A DNA stretch of 64,000 nt from Gammaproteobacteria bacterium (GCA_021324815.1 JAJPIJ010000023.1:666-64665); one strand, 5' to 3'; shown: positions 397 through 6,670, counted from the stretch's first letter. Numbers and translations are program-made. Notes: generated by a model not told the origin, from the letters alone.

Positions 397-927
397 TTAC
401 CGCCGGACGGGTCGCTTCTTGAGCTTGCGCTGCAAGGTGCGGCGGTGCATGCGCAGCCGCCGCGCCGCCTCCGAGATGTTGCCGGCGGAGTCGCTCAGCA
501 CCTTCTGGATGTGCTCCCATTCCAGCCGCTTGATGGACGGCCGGTCGCCGGCCACGGGCGTCAGACTCGATCCCGCTGCGCGCGTCAGGGCGGCGACGAT
601 TTCATCGGCGTCCGCCGGCTTGGCGAGGTAGTGCACCGCGCCGAGCTTGATGGCCTCCACGGCGGTGGCGATGCTGGCGTAGCCGGTCAGCACCACGATG
701 CGGATGCCGGAATGAAGGCAGCGGAGCTGCTCGATCAGCGCCAGACCGCTTGTCCCCGGCAGGCGCAAATCCACAATGGCGTCATCGAAGCGCGTGCCGC
801 GCGCGAGCGCCATGGCGGCCGTCGCATCGGCCGCCGTCTGGACCGCATAACCGCGAGCCGCGAGCGCGCCGGCCAGCACGCCCCGGAAGGTGTCATCGTC
901 ATCGACCAGCAGCAGGGAGCGGCTCAT
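397..927 (-). CDS. regA: RegA/PrrA/ActR-family response regulator
   Basis: Receiver domain (LLVDDD, VDLRLP, LTGYASIATAVEAIKLGAVHYLAKP) plus the diagnostic effector region LEWEHIQKVL...NISEAARRLRMHRRTLQRKL. Confidence 0.93.
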   Translation of the reverse strand: MSRSLLLVDDDDTFRGVLAGALAARGYAVQTAADATAAMALARGTRFDDAIVDLRLPGTSGLALIEQLRCLHSGIRIVVLTGYASIATAVEAIKLGAVHYLAKPADADEIVAALTRAAGSSLTPVAGDRPSIKRLEWEHIQKVLSDSAGNISEAARRLRMHRRTLQRKLKKRPVRR

Positions 928-2144
928 GCAAGCAGGGTCTTGAGCGGCAGGCTGATTTCGGCGACGACGCCGCGGCCGGCGGCGCGCTCACGCAGGACCA
1001 GTCTCCCGCCGAGGCGCTTGAGCGCAAGGTGGGCGAGGGGGAGTCCCATGCCCAATCCGTGCGGCTTGGTGGTGACGAAGGCCCGGCCGACGCGCGCCGC
1101 GATCCCCGGCGGCAGCCCGCCGCCTTCGTCGCGAATCAGCACCTTCAGTTCCGATTCATCCCAGCGGCCCTCGATCTCAACGCGGCCCGGCGAGGCGTCG
1201 GCGGCGTTGTGCAGGACGTTCATGATCGCCTGCGACAGCGTGCGATCGGCGATGATGCAGGGCGGCGGCTGCGGACCGCGCAGTTGCACACTGACTTCGG
1301 GGTCGGGACGCAATATCCGCCATTCGTCGACGAGCTGCGCGAGATAACGGTCCACATCCACCCGCCCGCCGCCCAGGGCCTGGGCCTGCCCCGACTGCGC
1401 GCTCATGCGGGAGAGGATGTCCTTGCAGCGGTCGATTTGCCCGCGCAACACGCGCAGGCCATCGACCAGCCCGGGATCGCCCTGCCGCTCCCGCTGCAGG
1501 TCCTTGGCCAGCACGGCCATCGTTGACAGCGGCGTTCCCAGTTCATGGCAGGTGCCGGCCGCGAGCGACCCCAGCGCCAGCCACTGCCTCGCCTCGGCCA
1601 GCTCGCGGTCATGGGCGCGCAGGGTCGCGCCGATGCGGGCGACGAAGTAGGCGACCACCACGGCGCTCAGCAGGAATCCGAACCACATGCCCCACAGGTG
1701 CGGCGAGTAATGATCGTCCTCGTGCACCCAGTGCAGGGTGTGCTGATGCAGGAACATGAGCGCCGTGTAGCAGGCGGCGGCGCAGGCCACCAGCAGCCAG
1801 GTGTAGGCGGGTCGCAGCGTGGCCGCGGCCACGGTGACGGGCAGCAGGAACAGGGAGACGAAGGGGTTCCAGGAGCCGCCGGTGAAATACAGCAGCGCGG
1901 TGAGCGCGCCGATGTCGAGGAACAACTGGCACAGCACCTCGGCTTCCGGGACCGGCCGGCGCGCCGCGACGCCGCGCCAGGAGAACAGCGTCACCGCCGC
2001 CAGCAGCAGCATCACGCCGATGATCGGCGGCCAGGGCAGCGGCGCGTGCAGGAACATATGCGCGGCGATGAGGGCGGCGATTTGCACGCCCATGGCGAAG
2101 GTCCGCAGCAGCAGCAGGTAACGCAGACAAAGACTGGTCAGCAT
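924..2144 (-). CDS. regB: RegB/PrrB-family redox sensor histidine kinase
   Basis: Several TM helices with the GGxxNPF motif (TGGSWNPF), H-box HELGTPL, the DRCKDIL cysteine motif, and N/G boxes (NVLHNAADA, DEGGG, GLGMGL). Overlaps regA by 4 nt. ATG at 2144 was chosen over the longer ORF. Confidence 0.9.
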   Translation of the reverse strand: MLTSLCLRYLLLLRTFAMGVQIAALIAAHMFLHAPLPWPPIIGVMLLLAAVTLFSWRGVAARRPVPEAEVLCQLFLDIGALTALLYFTGGSWNPFVSLFLLPVTVAAATLRPAYTWLLVACAAACYTALMFLHQHTLHWVHEDDHYSPHLWGMWFGFLLSAVVVAYFVARIGATLRAHDRELAEARQWLALGSLAAGTCHELGTPLSTMAVLAKDLQRERQGDPGLVDGLRVLRGQIDRCKDILSRMSAQSGQAQALGGGRVDVDRYLAQLVDEWRILRPDPEVSVQLRGPQPPPCIIADRTLSQAIMNVLHNAADASPGRVEIEGRWDESELKVLIRDEGGGLPPGIAARVGRAFVTTKPHGLGMGLPLAHLALKRLGGRLVLRERAAGRGVVAEISLPLKTLLA

Positions 2145-2175
2145 GAGGAGCGGCCCGGGATCACCGAGAGATTTG

Positions 2176-2184
2176 ATTATATCA
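2176..2184 (-). promoter_or_regulatory. Extended -10 promoter for regB (TG-A-TATAAT)
   Basis: The minus strand reads TGATATAAT about 30 nt upstream of the regB ATG. Confidence 0.6.
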
Positions 2185-2233
2185 AGCCATTGCCGGCCGT
2201 GAGCGGCCTGAATCCCGGCGGTGGCCGGCAAGG

Positions 2234-2250
2234 TGCGACATTTTGCCGCA
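2234..2250. promoter_or_regulatory. RegA/RegR/PrrA binding box
   Basis: TGCGACATTTTGCCGCA; the reverse complement contains GCGGC-AAAAT-GTCGC, matching the RegR-box consensus GCGGC-N5-GTCGC. It lies in the intergenic region next to regBA. Confidence 0.75.
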
Positions 2251-2272
2251 GTCCGGGGGAGGCTGATTTCGC

Positions 2273-2278
2273 TAGACT
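2273..2278 (+). promoter_or_regulatory. Candidate -10 element (TAGACT) for the copper cassette
   Basis: TAnnnT hexamer about 50 nt before ATG 2328 with no recognisable -35. The RegA box abuts the -35 position. Confidence 0.4.
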
Positions 2279-2327
2279 GCGTTTTCACGATGCGACACGC
2301 GCCATTCAGGAAATACAACGGAAAAAA

Positions 2328-3305
2328 ATGCGGACTTCGACGACGATTCAAGGCCCCTTCAAAAAGCTGCTGTTGGTGGGCACGACAATCTGTTGGGTGT
2401 CATACACCGCGATGGCGCAAGCCCATGGATTCGCGGGCAGGCGCTTCTTTCCGGCCACGATAGCCACGGATGATCCGTTCATGAACGATGAAGCCGGGCT
2501 GGTGTTTGGTAACACTTGGGAACCGGACATTGACACCCATACCGACACGACGATCTCAGGCGAATGGGCCAAGACCATCACCCCAACCTTTGGGTTCTCG
2601 ATAGGCAACGCATTTCACCACATCAATCCTAAGGAAGGAAAAGACATAAACGGCTTCGAGAATCTCGATGTCGGAGCCAAGTGGCAGTTTTACACCAACG
2701 ACCCCAACGAGACCATCTTGTCCATCGGCTTGAATGCCGAGGTTGGAGGTACGGGGAGCGCGCATCTCGGTGTTGACCCCTTTTCCACGGTCTCACCCAC
2801 CTTCTTCTTCGGCCAGGGGATGGGATTCCTGCCGGAATCGATGAAAATGTTGAGGCCTTTTGCGGTGACCGGGACCTTGAGCGCCGACATTCCCACGGTG
2901 TCGACGATTGAGAGCACAGGGAAGAAACCGGCCACGAACTTGAGCTGGGGGATCTCGCTGCAATACAATCTCCAGTACCTGCAATCCTTTGTTCGCGACA
3001 TGGGACTGCCGGCGCCCTTCAACCGAATGATCCCGTTGGTCGAATTCCCAATGACGACATGCGTGAATCGAGATTGTGACGGACAAACGACCGGCTTTGT
3101 CGCACCGGGCGTCATTTGGTTTGGGAAGCACACGCAATTCGGTCTGGAGGCCCAGATACCCATCGATGACCGCAGTGGCCATGACGCCGGCATCATGGCC
3201 CAAGTACATTTCTTCATTGACGACATTTTCCCGGATTCCCTGGGCCGACCCTTGATCGGCGCGAAGAAGGCCTATCCAGCGTGGTGGGGCGGCTCCCGCG
3301 AGTAA
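2328..3305 (+). CDS. Uncharacterised secreted protein, predicted outer-membrane beta-barrel with mature N-terminal His
   Basis: Signal peptide ending AQA followed by HGFAGRRFFPATIATDDP. Alternating hydrophobic/aromatic strand-like segments (NLDVGAKWQFY, ILSIGLNAEVG, LSWGISLQYNL, TQFGLEAQIP, MAQVHFFIDD). First gene of the copC-copD operon. Confidence 0.7.
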   Translation: MRTSTTIQGPFKKLLLVGTTICWVSYTAMAQAHGFAGRRFFPATIATDDPFMNDEAGLVFGNTWEPDIDTHTDTTISGEWAKTITPTFGFSIGNAFHHINPKEGKDINGFENLDVGAKWQFYTNDPNETILSIGLNAEVGGTGSAHLGVDPFSTVSPTFFFGQGMGFLPESMKMLRPFAVTGTLSADIPTVSTIESTGKKPATNLSWGISLQYNLQYLQSFVRDMGLPAPFNRMIPLVEFPMTTCVNRDCDGQTTGFVAPGVIWFGKHTQFGLEAQIPIDDRSGHDAGIMAQVHFFIDDIFPDSLGRPLIGAKKAYPAWWGGSRE

Positions 3306-3652
3306 TCACGCTGGCGATCGCGCTGGCTTCGGCGGCCTGGCAACCGAAGACATGGGGCCATGCCTTTCTGGATCATGGCGAACCCAGGGTGGGCGCTGAA
3401 CTGGCGGCATCGCCACAACAAATAGTGCTGTACTTCGATAGCGAACTGGAACCCGCCTTTTCGGGATTGGTCCTGGAAGACGCGGACGGTCATGAGATCA
3501 AGCGAAGCGGGACGCAAAATGATGCCGGCGATCCCACGAGGCTTTCCATGCCGTGTCCTCCGCTCGGTTCCGGTACCTACCGGGTGCGCTGGAGCGTCGT
3601 CGCACGGGACGGGCACCGCACGGAGGGAGATTACACCTTCTCCGTCCACTAG
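3281..3652 (+). CDS. copC: Periplasmic copper-binding protein CopC
   Basis: Signal peptide, then mature N-terminal HAFL, the FDSELEPAFS segment, and C-terminal YRVRWSVVARDGHRTEGDYTFSV with the DGH Cu(II) motif. Confidence 0.92.
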   Translation: MVGRLPRVITLAIALASAAWQPKTWGHAFLDHGEPRVGAELAASPQQIVLYFDSELEPAFSGLVLEDADGHEIKRSGTQNDAGDPTRLSMPCPPLGSGTYRVRWSVVARDGHRTEGDYTFSVH

Positions 3653-3662
3653 GAACCCACAC

Positions 3663-4676
3663 TTGCTCGGTTCGCCTCTCCACCTTCTCCCTTCGTTTTT
3701 TGATCTACTGGCGTTGGGTACGATTTTGGGGGCGTTAAGCATCCGGCTTTGGGTGTTCCCCCGCGCCGGTCGTACGGAAGAGACGGTCGTCTTTGCGAGC
3801 ATCGGCGGCAGATTCACAAGCCTGCTTACGTGGTCGCTCCTTCTTCTCACCGCCACCAGCGTGGCGGTTCTGGTGGTGCGCGCCGCGGAAATAAGCGGTC
3901 AGCCTTATGGCGCCGTATCGCGGGTATTGCCCGCGGTACTGTTCAAAACTCACTATGGGACAATCTGGTTCCTGCGGCTTGCGGCCCTGTTTGTGCTGTG
4001 GGCGGGCGTGTTGGCGATGCGCCGAACCGGCGGCGCCGCCGCGCCCGCGGCAGCCTTTGTCGCCGCCGCGGCCATTGCCTGGACTTACAGCGCAACGGGT
4101 CACGCCAGCGATCAAGGCGACTTCACGATTATTCAAACCATGGACTGGCTGCACCTACTCGCCATCTCGGCATGGGGCGGCGGCCTGCTTGCCGTGACCC
4201 TTGTCATTCGGCCTGCATTGGCGGAAAAGATGAATGAACACCAGGTGAAAAATCTCAGCGGGATTTGCCGGCGGCTGTCCCGGCTCGCCGGCTGCTCGCT
4301 CCTTGTGGTCATCGTTACCGGAAGCTACGGCGCCTGGCGCCATGTTCCCGGCCTTGCCGCGCTTGGGGACACGATTTACGGGCGGGCGCTGAGCGTGAAG
4401 TTGTTTTTCGTTCTCACGATGGTTCTGCTGGGGGCAATCAACCGTTACCTGGTCCTGCCGAAATTGCCTGCATCCGGAGGCGCATCTGCCACCGGTGGCG
4501 GGCAATCAGGCGCGGACCTCTTGCGGCAATTCTTCCGAAGGGTCGGTCAGGAAGCCTTCCTCATGATCCTCGTGCTGGGTTGTGTCACGTTCCTGATTCA
4601 CAGCCCGCCGCCAGGTCCGTTCATGGATATGACGCGTCATCACCCTGCACACATACGGGACGCGGAAGGGCCCTGA
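3663..4676 (+). CDS. copD: Inner-membrane copper transport protein CopD
   Basis: Multi-TM protein with TGHA, DWLHLLAISAWGGGL, SRLAGCSLLVVIVTGSY and YGRALSVKLFFVLTMVLLGAINRY. TTG start at 3663 follows AGGAA, directly after copC. Confidence 0.88.
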   Translation: MLGSPLHLLPSFFDLLALGTILGALSIRLWVFPRAGRTEETVVFASIGGRFTSLLTWSLLLLTATSVAVLVVRAAEISGQPYGAVSRVLPAVLFKTHYGTIWFLRLAALFVLWAGVLAMRRTGGAAAPAAAFVAAAAIAWTYSATGHASDQGDFTIIQTMDWLHLLAISAWGGGLLAVTLVIRPALAEKMNEHQVKNLSGICRRLSRLAGCSLLVVIVTGSYGAWRHVPGLAALGDTIYGRALSVKLFFVLTMVLLGAINRYLVLPKLPASGGASATGGGQSGADLLRQFFRRVGQEAFLMILVLGCVTFLIHSPPPGPFMDMTRHHPAHIRDAEGP

Positions 4677-4689
4677 CCGGCGGCCTGCG

Positions 4690-5253
4690 TTATTTCGGCG
4701 GCGAAGTCGCGATGCGAAGGAGACGGACGGATTTTTTGAACAGCTCGGATTGATGCTTGGCGACGAACGCGGCGATCGTTTTGGCGTCAGCGGCAAGATG
4801 GACCTCCGGCGCGTAGCTGCTGTCATCGGCCCTGCCCGCGATCTCGCCACGCCGCACCGCCGCGCGCGCGGCTTCAGGATCAAGCAGGCTCAATTCAACC
4901 GCGTCGCCCCCGGCCGAGTACCGCAACAAAAGATAACCCTCGCCGGAATCCCCGCCGTGCAGATTCAGATAGCGCACACCCTTCAAAATGGAAGTATGGC
5001 CCTGGTAGTGGGAAACGCGGGTTTGTCCATCGGCGGAGGGCTCGGTCACCGTGATGTTCAGGCTGTGCCGGTCCCGCGCCTCGACGACCACCGTCATGGT
5101 CCGCTCCTCGTCGCGCCAGGTGCCGGGCAGGGCCTTGTCGATCTTCGCCGACGCCACCGGCGTGAGTGGCTGCGGCAGTGTCGCCACGCAACCCGCGAGA
5201 CCAAGAACCGCGAGGAGGGACAGCAGCCGGTTTGTCGTTCGTCGCCGCATCAC
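4690..5253 (-). CDS. Hypothetical lipoprotein
   Basis: Basic N-terminus, hydrophobic stretch and lipobox LAGC; typical codon usage; no recognised domain. Confidence 0.7.
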   Translation of the reverse strand: MMRRRTTNRLLSLLAVLGLAGCVATLPQPLTPVASAKIDKALPGTWRDEERTMTVVVEARDRHSLNITVTEPSADGQTRVSHYQGHTSILKGVRYLNLHGGDSGEGYLLLRYSAGGDAVELSLLDPEAARAAVRRGEIAGRADDSSYAPEVHLAADAKTIAAFVAKHQSELFKKSVRLLRIATSPPK

Positions 5254-6582: not shown

Positions 6583-6670
6583 TGGTGCCGGGAGTGGGGG
6601 TCGAACCCACATGAGGGGTAACCTCACTGGATTTTGAGTCCAGCGCGTCTGCCAATTCCGCCATCCCGGC
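6583..6670 (-). tRNA. tRNA-Leu (CAA)
   Basis: The minus strand reads GCCGGGA...CTGGA-CTCAAAA-TCCAG...GTGGGTTCGACCCCCAC-TCCCGGC-A-CCA, with a long variable arm and encoded CCA. Confidence 0.95.

Follow-up and report, generated by a model that had tools for sequence, protein, structure and literature searches.

The stretch of DNA examined here, 64,000 nucleotides long and hereafter called the window, derives from an uncultured gammaproteobacterial metagenome-assembled genome (MAG; GCA_021324815.1, JAJPIJ010000023.1:666-64665). The region under study within it, positions 397-4676, holds five genes: the two-component system genes regA and regB and, divergent from them, an operon formed by a gene for a predicted outer-membrane beta-barrel, here called ORF-X (open reading frame X), followed by copC and copD. 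The region is classed here as a putative import system of the CopC-CopD kind whose new features are an outer-membrane component and control by a redox sensor. On the evidence, which is computational throughout, the balance tips slightly towards a reading in which ORF-X, CopC and CopD make up a three-compartment copper route, and phosphorylated RegA (RegA~P) activates copper import for respiratory oxidases from a box located at about -43 in the operon's promoter.

The predicted ORF-X barrel and its CopC and CopD partners

A first-pass annotation of the window had placed regBA divergently from a tightly coupled operon. Its coordinates and couplings are correct, because gene structure and public gene calls agree: ORF-X and copC overlap by 25 nt, copC and copD are separated by 10 nt, and the same RegA, RegB, ORF-X and CopD products are called on public contigs of the same genome. 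Translational coupling of the three operon genes is seen both in the window and in L086, a close relative (labels of this form denote loci in other genomes).

Homology searches with ORF-X return more than 1400 relatives, all unnamed or labelled hypothetical at source, and an exhaustive profile search resolves the family into 2359 clusters at 50% identity, nearly all of them single-domain proteins of ~300-330 amino acids (aa). A scan of one genome per species identifies a relative in at least 566 species genomes, and the host taxa are all diderm. The 80 best-scoring loci of this set, outside which L086 lies, were then compared by tblastn with the window proteins. ORF-X is followed by copC and copD on the same strand in ~75 of these 80 loci, and the exceptions are mostly contig ends. 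The taxa bearing the module include Nitrospirota, Verrucomicrobiota, Casimicrobiaceae and other Burkholderiales, Gamma-, Zeta- and Alphaproteobacteria, Thermodesulfovibrionales, Rokubacteria and Methylomirabilota, among others. Clustering of all neighbouring ORFs reveals no further widely shared gene near the module. Since the same gene order recurs in so many loci and no other gene is widely shared, ORF-X-copC-copD is one ancient functional module, as the first-pass annotation had supposed in treating the three genes as a unit.

Neither Pfam nor NCBIfam contains a family for ORF-X, and its profile has no match even at E 10 when searched against all PDB chains. The AF2 model of the protein is a 12-strand beta-barrel (pLDDT 81, pTM 0.76) whose top Foldseek matches are themselves outer-membrane barrels of 12 strands, namely FapF (E 2e-10), NanC and the COG4313 channel 4rl8, and the earlier call of a barrel is thereby supported. 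The match to 4rl8 (E 6e-6, TM-score 0.5-0.6) scores below that to FapF and does not in itself establish homology. A weak match to PF13557 (E 0.004) is found in 2 of 25 ORF-X relatives and not in the window protein. The Pfam scan of ORF-X likewise gives no match to the CopB hidden Markov model (PF05275), and the sequence has no Met-rich tract.

Directly after the signal peptide, the family carries the hallmark H-G-x-A-G-x-R-F-F-P-x-T...D-D-P-F..D-E. In 118 of 120 relatives the HGxxGxRF portion begins immediately after a -1 residue that is small (A 92, G 9, S 8, P 9), with another small residue at -3, so the His is predicted to be residue 1 of the mature protein; of 118 relatives, 109-118 have it immediately behind the signal peptidase cut. 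The 'His1 barrel' of the first-pass annotation therefore holds at the level of prediction. A second conserved block, H-F-F-I-D-D-x-F-P, follows the last strand and includes His294. Among 214 diverse members with identities down to 28%, H33 is kept in 89% and H294 in 79%, and the two residues co-occur with an odds ratio of 9.9 (Fisher p 9e-5, uncorrected for phylogeny). Conservation in ORF-X is highest in three parts: the N-terminal segment with His33, the long turn 213-233 and the HFFIDD block at the C-terminus. In the standard topology of outer-membrane barrels both termini are periplasmic, so these parts would face the periplasm. His294 is the candidate second histidine for completing with His33 a T-shaped histidine-brace site, as in CopC, YcnI and LPMO-like proteins, through which ORF-X would bind Cu(II). 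A divergent minority of the family (P0246, P0284, P0331, P0376, P0390 and others) has Gln, Asp, Tyr or Phe in place of the N-terminal His, and in many of these proteins His294 is missing too; they may represent a subfamily whose ligand set or substrate is different.

The two partner proteins belong to known families. The window CopC scores 77.3 bits against Pfam CopC (PF04234; cutoff 23.3) and matches the NCBIfam YobA/CopC family. Its mature form starts HAFLDHG, a DGH motif is found close to the C-terminus and Met occurs once in 123 residues; judged by these features it is a Cu(II)-only CopC that lacks the Met-rich Cu(I) site. The same pattern holds widely, with 73 of 76 CopCs linked to ORF-X relatives keeping DxH and having <1% Met. 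The window CopD scores 60.4 bits against Pfam CopD (PF05425; cutoff 32.1) and 117 bits against the NCBIfam copper_CopD model, which is below the equivalog cutoff of 195.

Some loci have further genes beside the module. In 13 Verrucomicrobia loci (L011, L014, L015, L018, L020, L025, L034, L035, L040, L041, L049, L052 and L073), a gene for a small membrane protein of ~130 aa lies ~100-600 bp upstream of ORF-X. A representative of these proteins carries an HPCSLCQ motif, and the protein may be a lineage-specific fourth component. Genes for components of metal ABC transporters, a ZnuA-like solute-binding protein and a ZnuC-like ATPase, occur near the module in 7-9 loci (L001, L010, L022, L029, L062, L075, L078 and others).

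A RegA-type promoter and its interchangeable cargo

The spacer between regB and ORF-X contains a palindromic box of the RegA type, TGCGACATTTTGCCGCA. Its core, GCGACATTTTGCCGC, agrees with the Bradyrhizobium RegR consensus GNGRCRTTNNGNCGC at 15 of 15 positions and is the only match to that consensus in the window. About 0.87 matches per 64-kb window are expected by chance, which corresponds to a chance of ~0.0025 for a match within the 183-bp spacer. The box also fits the looser PrrA pattern GCGNC-N5-GNCGC. This pattern was dropped as evidence, with 27 matches in the window versus 18 expected; it is uninformative because the DNA is GC-rich.

The centre of the box, position 2242, lies 31 nt before the predicted -10 hexamer TAGACT and at about -43 relative to the predicted start site near 2285, which bears out the placement of a RegA/RegR box ~43 bp upstream of the operon's start in the first-pass annotation. 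A generic sigma-70 scan detects no promoter in the spacer. This result is read as an activator-dependent promoter without a -35 element rather than as the absence of a promoter. The predicted geometry is that of an activator site overlapping the -35 position, and the missing -35 element favours activation over repression. From the palindrome and its placement we infer that RegA binds the site directly and activates rather than represses the operon.

On the opposite strand, the element TTGATTATATCAA is conserved in the window, L086, L088 and L087, each time 47-48 nt from the box. Its TATAAT is likely the -10 of the regB promoter, and with this placement the box is ~70 nt upstream of the regB start. 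An assignment of TTGATTATATCAA as an FNR box was rejected, since its spacing is N3 and not N4 and a regB -10 fits better. Also dropped was a further TGCGACA half-site at 2291-2297, downstream of the predicted -10 and ahead of the ORF-X start; it is not conserved in L086 or L088 and is therefore probably due to chance. An Rfam search finds no RNA element in the 5' untranslated region (UTR) of ORF-X.

The promoter arrangement recurs in related genomes. A total of 1.14 Mb of fetched loci was scanned for the palindrome TGCGACA-N3-TGTCGCA with at most one mismatch. The palindrome is present at nine promoters in seven genomes, its centre always 31-32 nt before a -10 of the form TAnnnT, and hardly any site within one mismatch of it lies elsewhere in the scanned DNA. 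The palindrome and its fixed spacing lend support to the claim that the operon's promoter holds a RegA-type site. The L086 and L088 boxes are identical to that of the window but for one C/T change. In L050, L069, L007 and L005 the box lies 31-32 nt before the TAnnnT and upstream of ORF-X. A second perfect palindrome, TGCGACAGATTGTCGCA, is present in L007, a gammaproteobacterial MAG, just downstream of copD (3419-3435).

In the nearest relatives, the genes that flank the operon are kept: LysR, ferritin, PreP, regA and regB on one side, and the lipoprotein-like ORF and an AI-2E transporter gene on the other. The slot between them varies among relatives of the window RegB. The window and L086 carry ORF-X-copC-copD. 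The slot of L088 (RegB 73% identical) holds a gene for a 325-aa outer-membrane barrel-like protein with the N-terminal sequence CDFCLMH and one for a TlpA/AhpC-like thioredoxin-fold protein. The barrel gene there, different from ORF-X, is preceded by the box CTGCGACATTTTGTCGCAG, by the GCTAGACTGC -10 region as in the window and by a homologous 5'UTR. The slot of L087 (RegB 80%) holds a thioredoxin-like gene, a gene for a 338-aa barrel-like protein (N-terminal CSSCGC) and a cytochrome c-SCO1/SenC-PCuAC operon. One L087 box lies 32 nt before TAAAAT in front of the CxxC barrel, and another 32 nt before TAGACT in front of the cytochrome c-SCO1-PCuAC operon. The link between RegBA and copper that the first-pass annotation had proposed gains support here, since other copper-trafficking genes occupy the same slot and follow the same promoter.

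The slot of L089 and L090 (RegB 66% and 62%) holds sorAB-like genes: at L089 3477-4823 and L090 3505-4827, genes for a sulfite-dehydrogenase-like molybdenum oxidoreductase and an adjacent cytochrome c are divergent from regBA. A degenerate box with two mismatches lies just upstream of regB in L090.

The 325-aa and 338-aa proteins were considered as ORF-X homologues and rejected by BLASTP and hhalign (probability 0.3%). The two do show mutual homology (29% identity, E 3e-12) and represent a second barrel-like family, encoded on the minus strand at L087 3018-4034 and L088 3784-4761, whose members end in aromatic residues and carry N-terminal Cys motifs after the signal peptide.

Base composition is consistent with exchange at the slot. 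The G+C content at third codon positions is 0.69-0.72 for ORF-X, copC and copD (overall GC 56-63%) versus 0.88-0.91 for regA, regB, the AI-2E gene, queA and tgt. This low value fits cassette exchange and suggests that the cassette arrived horizontally in a slot where the promoter was already present.

The coordinates of the region are collected in Table 1. The lipoprotein-like ORF that converges on copD has no Pfam or NCBIfam match. Homologues of it adjoin the variable slot at the same place in L086, L087 and L088, so this ORF is part of the conserved frame around the cassette. Further along, a tRNA-Leu gene (anticodon CAA; 6583-6670, minus strand) lies between the AI-2E transporter gene and queA and is the sole tRNA gene in the window.

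Table 1. Features of the region under study and its border, with positions counted from the first nucleotide of the window
Feature	Position	Strand	Description
regA	397-927	-	176 aa; Pfam Response_reg and HTH_8 (Fis-type helix-turn-helix)
regB	924-2144	-	406-aa membrane redox-sensing histidine kinase; 4-nt overlap with regA
Spacer between regB and ORF-X	2145-2327		183 bp
TTGATTATATCAA element	2173-2185	-	Carries TATAAT (2181-2176), likely the regB -10
RegA-type palindromic box TGCGACATTTTGCCGCA	2234-2250		17 bp; TGCGACA-N3-TGYCGCA; core RegR consensus at 2235-2249
Predicted -10 of the ORF-X operon, TAGACT	2273-2278	+	No recognisable -35
ORF-X	2328-3305	+	ATG start; predicted 12-strand outer-membrane beta-barrel; signal peptide residues 1-32, His33 codon 2424-2426
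copC	3281-3652	+	GTG start; 25-nt overlap with ORF-X; mature His1 codon 3359-3361
copD	3663-4676	+	TTG start, 10 nt past the copC stop; 337-aa inner-membrane CopD-family permease
Lipoprotein-like ORF	4690-5253	-	187 aa; lipobox LAGC; convergent with copD

The first-pass annotation had suggested a gene-neighbourhood search for the ORF-X family together with copC, copD and regBA. The linkage to copC and copD is widely conserved; that to regBA is confined to some gamma- and betaproteobacteria. True regBA genes next to the module are found, besides the window, only in L086, in L050 and in L069. L050 is a gammaproteobacterial MAG whose RegB, RegA and ORF-X are 48%, 59% and 46% identical to those of the window. 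In L069, a Burkholderiales MAG, a regB-like N-terminus that was read by eye runs divergently from position 244 at a contig end. The closest relative without regBA is L085 (ORF-X 65% identical), which has TonB-system genes upstream of the module and genes for an AraC-type response regulator and a multicopper oxidase downstream.

Regulator identity, proposed copper route and alternatives

The window RegB has six transmembrane (TM)-like segments, the quinone-site heptapeptide GGSWNPF at residues 89-95, the H-box HELGTPL (H200) and the redox box RCKDIL (C240). It thus carries the full set of features listed as diagnostic for RegB, namely six TM segments with GGXXNPF, the H-box His and the redox-box Cys (PMC8191878; for the TM and heptapeptide criterion also PMC3000548). 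Signals reach RegB proteins from the quinone pool and through the oxidation of cysteine (PMC3000548, PMC8191878). In this family, oxidised quinone or an oxidised cysteine inhibits the kinase. The window RegA matches PDB entry 3rqi over its full length (E 4e-46). Its residues 117-174 match the PrrA DNA-binding domain 1umq, with a conserved recognition helix (MHRRTLQRKL), so that the protein very probably keeps the DNA specificity of its family. The sole Cys of the window RegA is residue 70.

In the reading favoured here, the ORF-X barrel would admit or capture Cu(II) at the outer membrane and present it at a periplasm-facing site made of the N-terminal His33 and probably His294. The histidine-brace site of periplasmic CopC would then take over the Cu(II), and CopD would carry copper across the inner membrane for the metallation of heme-copper oxidases and other cuproenzymes. 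RegB would sense a reduced quinone pool or the thiol state, a situation that arises when oxygen is low or oxidase function suffers, lack of copper being one cause, and would then phosphorylate RegA. RegA~P would activate the operon, and the same box would autoregulate regBA. As a corollary, a copper shortage that cripples the oxidases would reduce the quinone pool and so raise copper import in a system with no dedicated copper sensor. The direction of transport, uptake rather than resistance, would follow by analogy with characterised systems: when copper is scarce, heme-copper oxidases are sustained by CopC-CopD proteins, which import the metal (PMC13344008; for E. coli AZY, PMC11923076), and YcnI, which has an N-terminal His, and the YcnJ CopC domain pass Cu(II) to one another (PMC12362106).

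Several observations weigh against this proposal. For the regulator, the best NCBIfam match of RegB, by a wide margin, is the ActS/PrrB/RegB model at 234 bits, below the NF033792 equivalog cutoff of 350 bits, and that of RegA is the ActR/PrrA/RegA model at 180 bits, below the cutoff of 250. The RegB score fits a gamma/beta branch that is distant from the alphaproteobacterial seed. Group-1 (alphaproteobacterial) RegA proteins have an invariant Cys156, and senC is cotranscribed with their regBA genes (PMC9147068). Where group 1 has this Cys, the window protein reads VLSDSAG, with Ser, in a by-eye alignment to VYELCDR of PMC9147068, and there is no senC at the window locus. Because Ser replaces Cys156 and senC is not at the locus, the window RegBA is treated as a gamma/beta-branch (RoxSR-like) system and not as a group-1 member.

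For the promoter, a site that overlaps the -35 region can also repress. A third L087 box lies at the orthologous position upstream of regB with no divergent -10 left, which implies that at least part of the role of this site is regBA autoregulation; the window box probably autoregulates regBA as well. Most ORF-X modules, those of other phyla and of L085 included, lack both the RegA box and regBA, so the RegA wiring is specific to certain lineages. The operon may also be a recent arrival with regulation inherited from the slot. For the barrel, Pro, a residue unfavourable for signal peptidase, occupies -1 in 9 of 118 relatives, and ~11% of family members have no His33. The periplasmic exposure of the conserved parts and the proximity of His33 to His294 are both presumed. 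For the direction of transport, a Methylosinus copCD deletion is cited in a 2020 review as having no clear uptake phenotype (PMC7558416).

Among the alternatives, the one that survives best, while still unlikely, is that the module does not acquire copper but deals with its excess, through resistance or sequestration in the periplasm, the role originally suggested for CopC and CopD in copABCD operons. CopC and CopD take their names from resistance operons, the L085 module lies near multicopper oxidase and response regulator genes, and betaproteobacteria from metal-rich sites carry extra copCD copies (PMC6769254). However, no copA, copB or efflux genes are found beside the module in the window, and its CopC is of the type without a Met-rich Cu(I) site. 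Experiments in B. subtilis and E. coli assign an import role to CopC-CopD (PMC13344008, PMC11923076, PMC12362106), and the sister cassettes under the same promoter encode the oxidase-assembly chaperones SCO1 and PCuAC and a TlpA-like protein.

It is quite unlikely that the box serves regBA autoregulation only, with ORF-X-copC-copD controlled otherwise, for example by a copper-responsive regulator encoded elsewhere. Such a role would suit the third L087 box, which is kept 48 nt from the regB -10 element, the degenerate L090 box beside unrelated sorAB-like genes, and the variability among relatives of the gene that adjoins regB. The position of the boxes argues otherwise. In L005 and L007 the box is at the same distance from the ORF-X start, yet regBA is not adjacent, and in L050 it is ~85 nt from the ORF-X start versus ~230 nt from that of regB. 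The two further L087 boxes are ~800 bp and ~3.7 kb from regB, each 32 nt before a cargo -10. Across the sites, the spacing to the cargo -10 is an invariant 31-32 nt, and the -35 regions are poor.

Another alternative is that ORF-X plays no direct part in copper passage and is a channel for small molecules in general or for hydrophobic substrates, like the COG4313 channels and FapF, with a structural role for its N-terminal His. Its best structural matches are channels for other substrates, the PF13557 signal exists if weakly, there is no Met- or His-rich tract of the PcoB kind, and His33 is missing from the minority of members noted above. Against this stand the near-obligate co-occurrence with copC and copD across phyla, with genes that overlap or are closely spaced, the peaks of conservation at the N-terminal His segment and the HFFIDD motif, and the co-occurrence of H33 and H294. 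A generic channel is therefore judged distinctly improbable.

Finally, binding of the palindrome by another regulator, such as a copper-responsive one of the CopR/CusR type, is very improbable: the CusR copper box does have inverted GACA/TGTC arms, like the core GACA-N3-TGTC, with an arm spacing one base off from that of the window palindrome, but the outer GCG/CGC bases of the RegA/PrrA/RegR consensus are conserved at the sites and all RegR positions match, the sites cluster by regBA in five genomes (the window, L086, L087, L088 and L050, with a regB-like start also in L069), and one of the driven operons is of the classical RegA-linked sco/senC type.

Relation to known systems and meaning

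The reading in which RegA drives a copper import route has counterparts in several characterised systems. In the YcnK-YcnJ-YcnI system of B. subtilis, the histidine-brace Cu(II) site of CopC likewise feeds CopD, YcnJ being a CopC-CopD fusion (PMC12362106, PMC13344008). The third co-encoded protein, YcnI, has an N-terminal His and exchanges Cu(II) with CopC, a role that for ORF-X is only predicted. YcnK-YcnJ-YcnI supports heme-copper oxidases under copper limitation, and the same is proposed for the window module. The two systems differ in that YcnI (DUF1775) is unrelated to the ORF-X barrel, the window CopC and CopD are separate proteins, and the Ycn system is governed by the copper-sensing repressors YcnK and CsoR as opposed to the apparent redox two-component control in the window.

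The AZY system of E. coli is similar in having a chromosomal CopC-CopD pair and a third small partner, and it is implicated in uptake and not resistance (PMC8689200, PMC11923076). In AZY the partner is YebY (DUF2511), a soluble protein of the periplasm whose gene follows copD, whereas the window partner is a barrel encoded before copC. We know of no RegA link for AZY.

A redox sensor tied to periplasmic copper delivery for oxidases is also seen in the senC-regA-regB (prrC-prrA-prrB) loci of alphaproteobacteria and in the Bradyrhizobium RegR regulon, and the window box matches the RegR/PrrA consensus as in that regulon (PMC9147068, PMC4064962). Those loci have a cotranscribed Sco chaperone, whereas the window has a divergent barrel-CopC-CopD import module, in a gammaproteobacterial host and with a RegA that lacks Cys156.

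The barrel itself resembles COG4313/Phenol_MetA_deg (PF13557) proteins and FapF in being a predicted 12-strand barrel of ~300 residues with an ordered N-terminal segment. It differs from them in having no significant sequence membership, and the HGxAGxRFFP and HFFIDD motifs and the strict copCD context are specific to the ORF-X family. With OprC/NosA, PcoB/CopB and porins it shares a proposed passage of copper over the outer membrane. Compared with OprC/NosA and PcoB/CopB, it is without a plug domain, TonB-dependent architecture or a Met/His-rich tail, and it is much smaller than OprC. The outer-membrane copper routes given in the 2020 review are porins, TonB-dependent transporters (OprC/NosA) and chalkophores (PMC7558416).

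The first-pass annotation knew of no precedent for a copper module wired to a redox sensor. In that general form the claim is too strong, because RegBA-type sensors have been linked to metal supply in three settings: copCAB expression is RegR-dependent in Bradyrhizobium, where direct binding was not shown (PMC4064962), senC is associated with regBA (PMC9147068), and RegA directly activates feo in Methylomonas (PMC13274454). What does stand is the novelty of the barrel family and of its direct promoter wiring. Literature searches on a barrel partner of CopCD, on COG4313 with copper and on RoxSR with copper return no description of the ORF-X family or of this wiring, and the P. putida RoxSR paper found concerns cadmium, not copper. 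In the literature searched and in current Pfam and NCBIfam, the ORF-X family with its strict CopC-CopD partnership, the RegA-box promoter that drives it and the interchangeable copper cassettes all appear to be undescribed.

A wider reading is put forward tentatively, with rather more doubt than confidence. Under it, the widespread ORF-X family would comprise dedicated outer-membrane copper entry proteins that hand Cu(II) directly to CopC from an N-terminal His site at the barrel's periplasmic mouth, and in some gamma- and betaproteobacteria this relay, together with the Cys-barrel, Sco, PCuAC and TlpA cassettes, would belong to the RegBA regulon. Outer-membrane copper passage for the ordinary supply of cuproenzymes is poorly defined, and CopC-CopD importers have been tied experimentally to oxidase metallation only recently (PMC13344008). 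The outer-membrane partner still missing from this picture would be a small barrel, encoded almost always ahead of copC-copD and present in more than 560 species from many diderm phyla, and one that is tractable for structural and metal-transfer work.

If correct, this would establish a relay of Cu(II) from outer membrane to periplasm to inner membrane in nitrifiers, Verrucomicrobia, iron oxidisers and many Proteobacteria. Through the redox state of its respiratory chain, the cell would gauge indirectly whether it has enough copper. The conserved RegA-type promoter suggests a demand logic in which failing or oxygen-limited respiration is sensed, and copper import and chaperone supply are raised, while copper itself is not measured. 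The different copper cassettes that lie behind the same promoter in the nearest relatives would then constitute a natural experiment for this demand logic.

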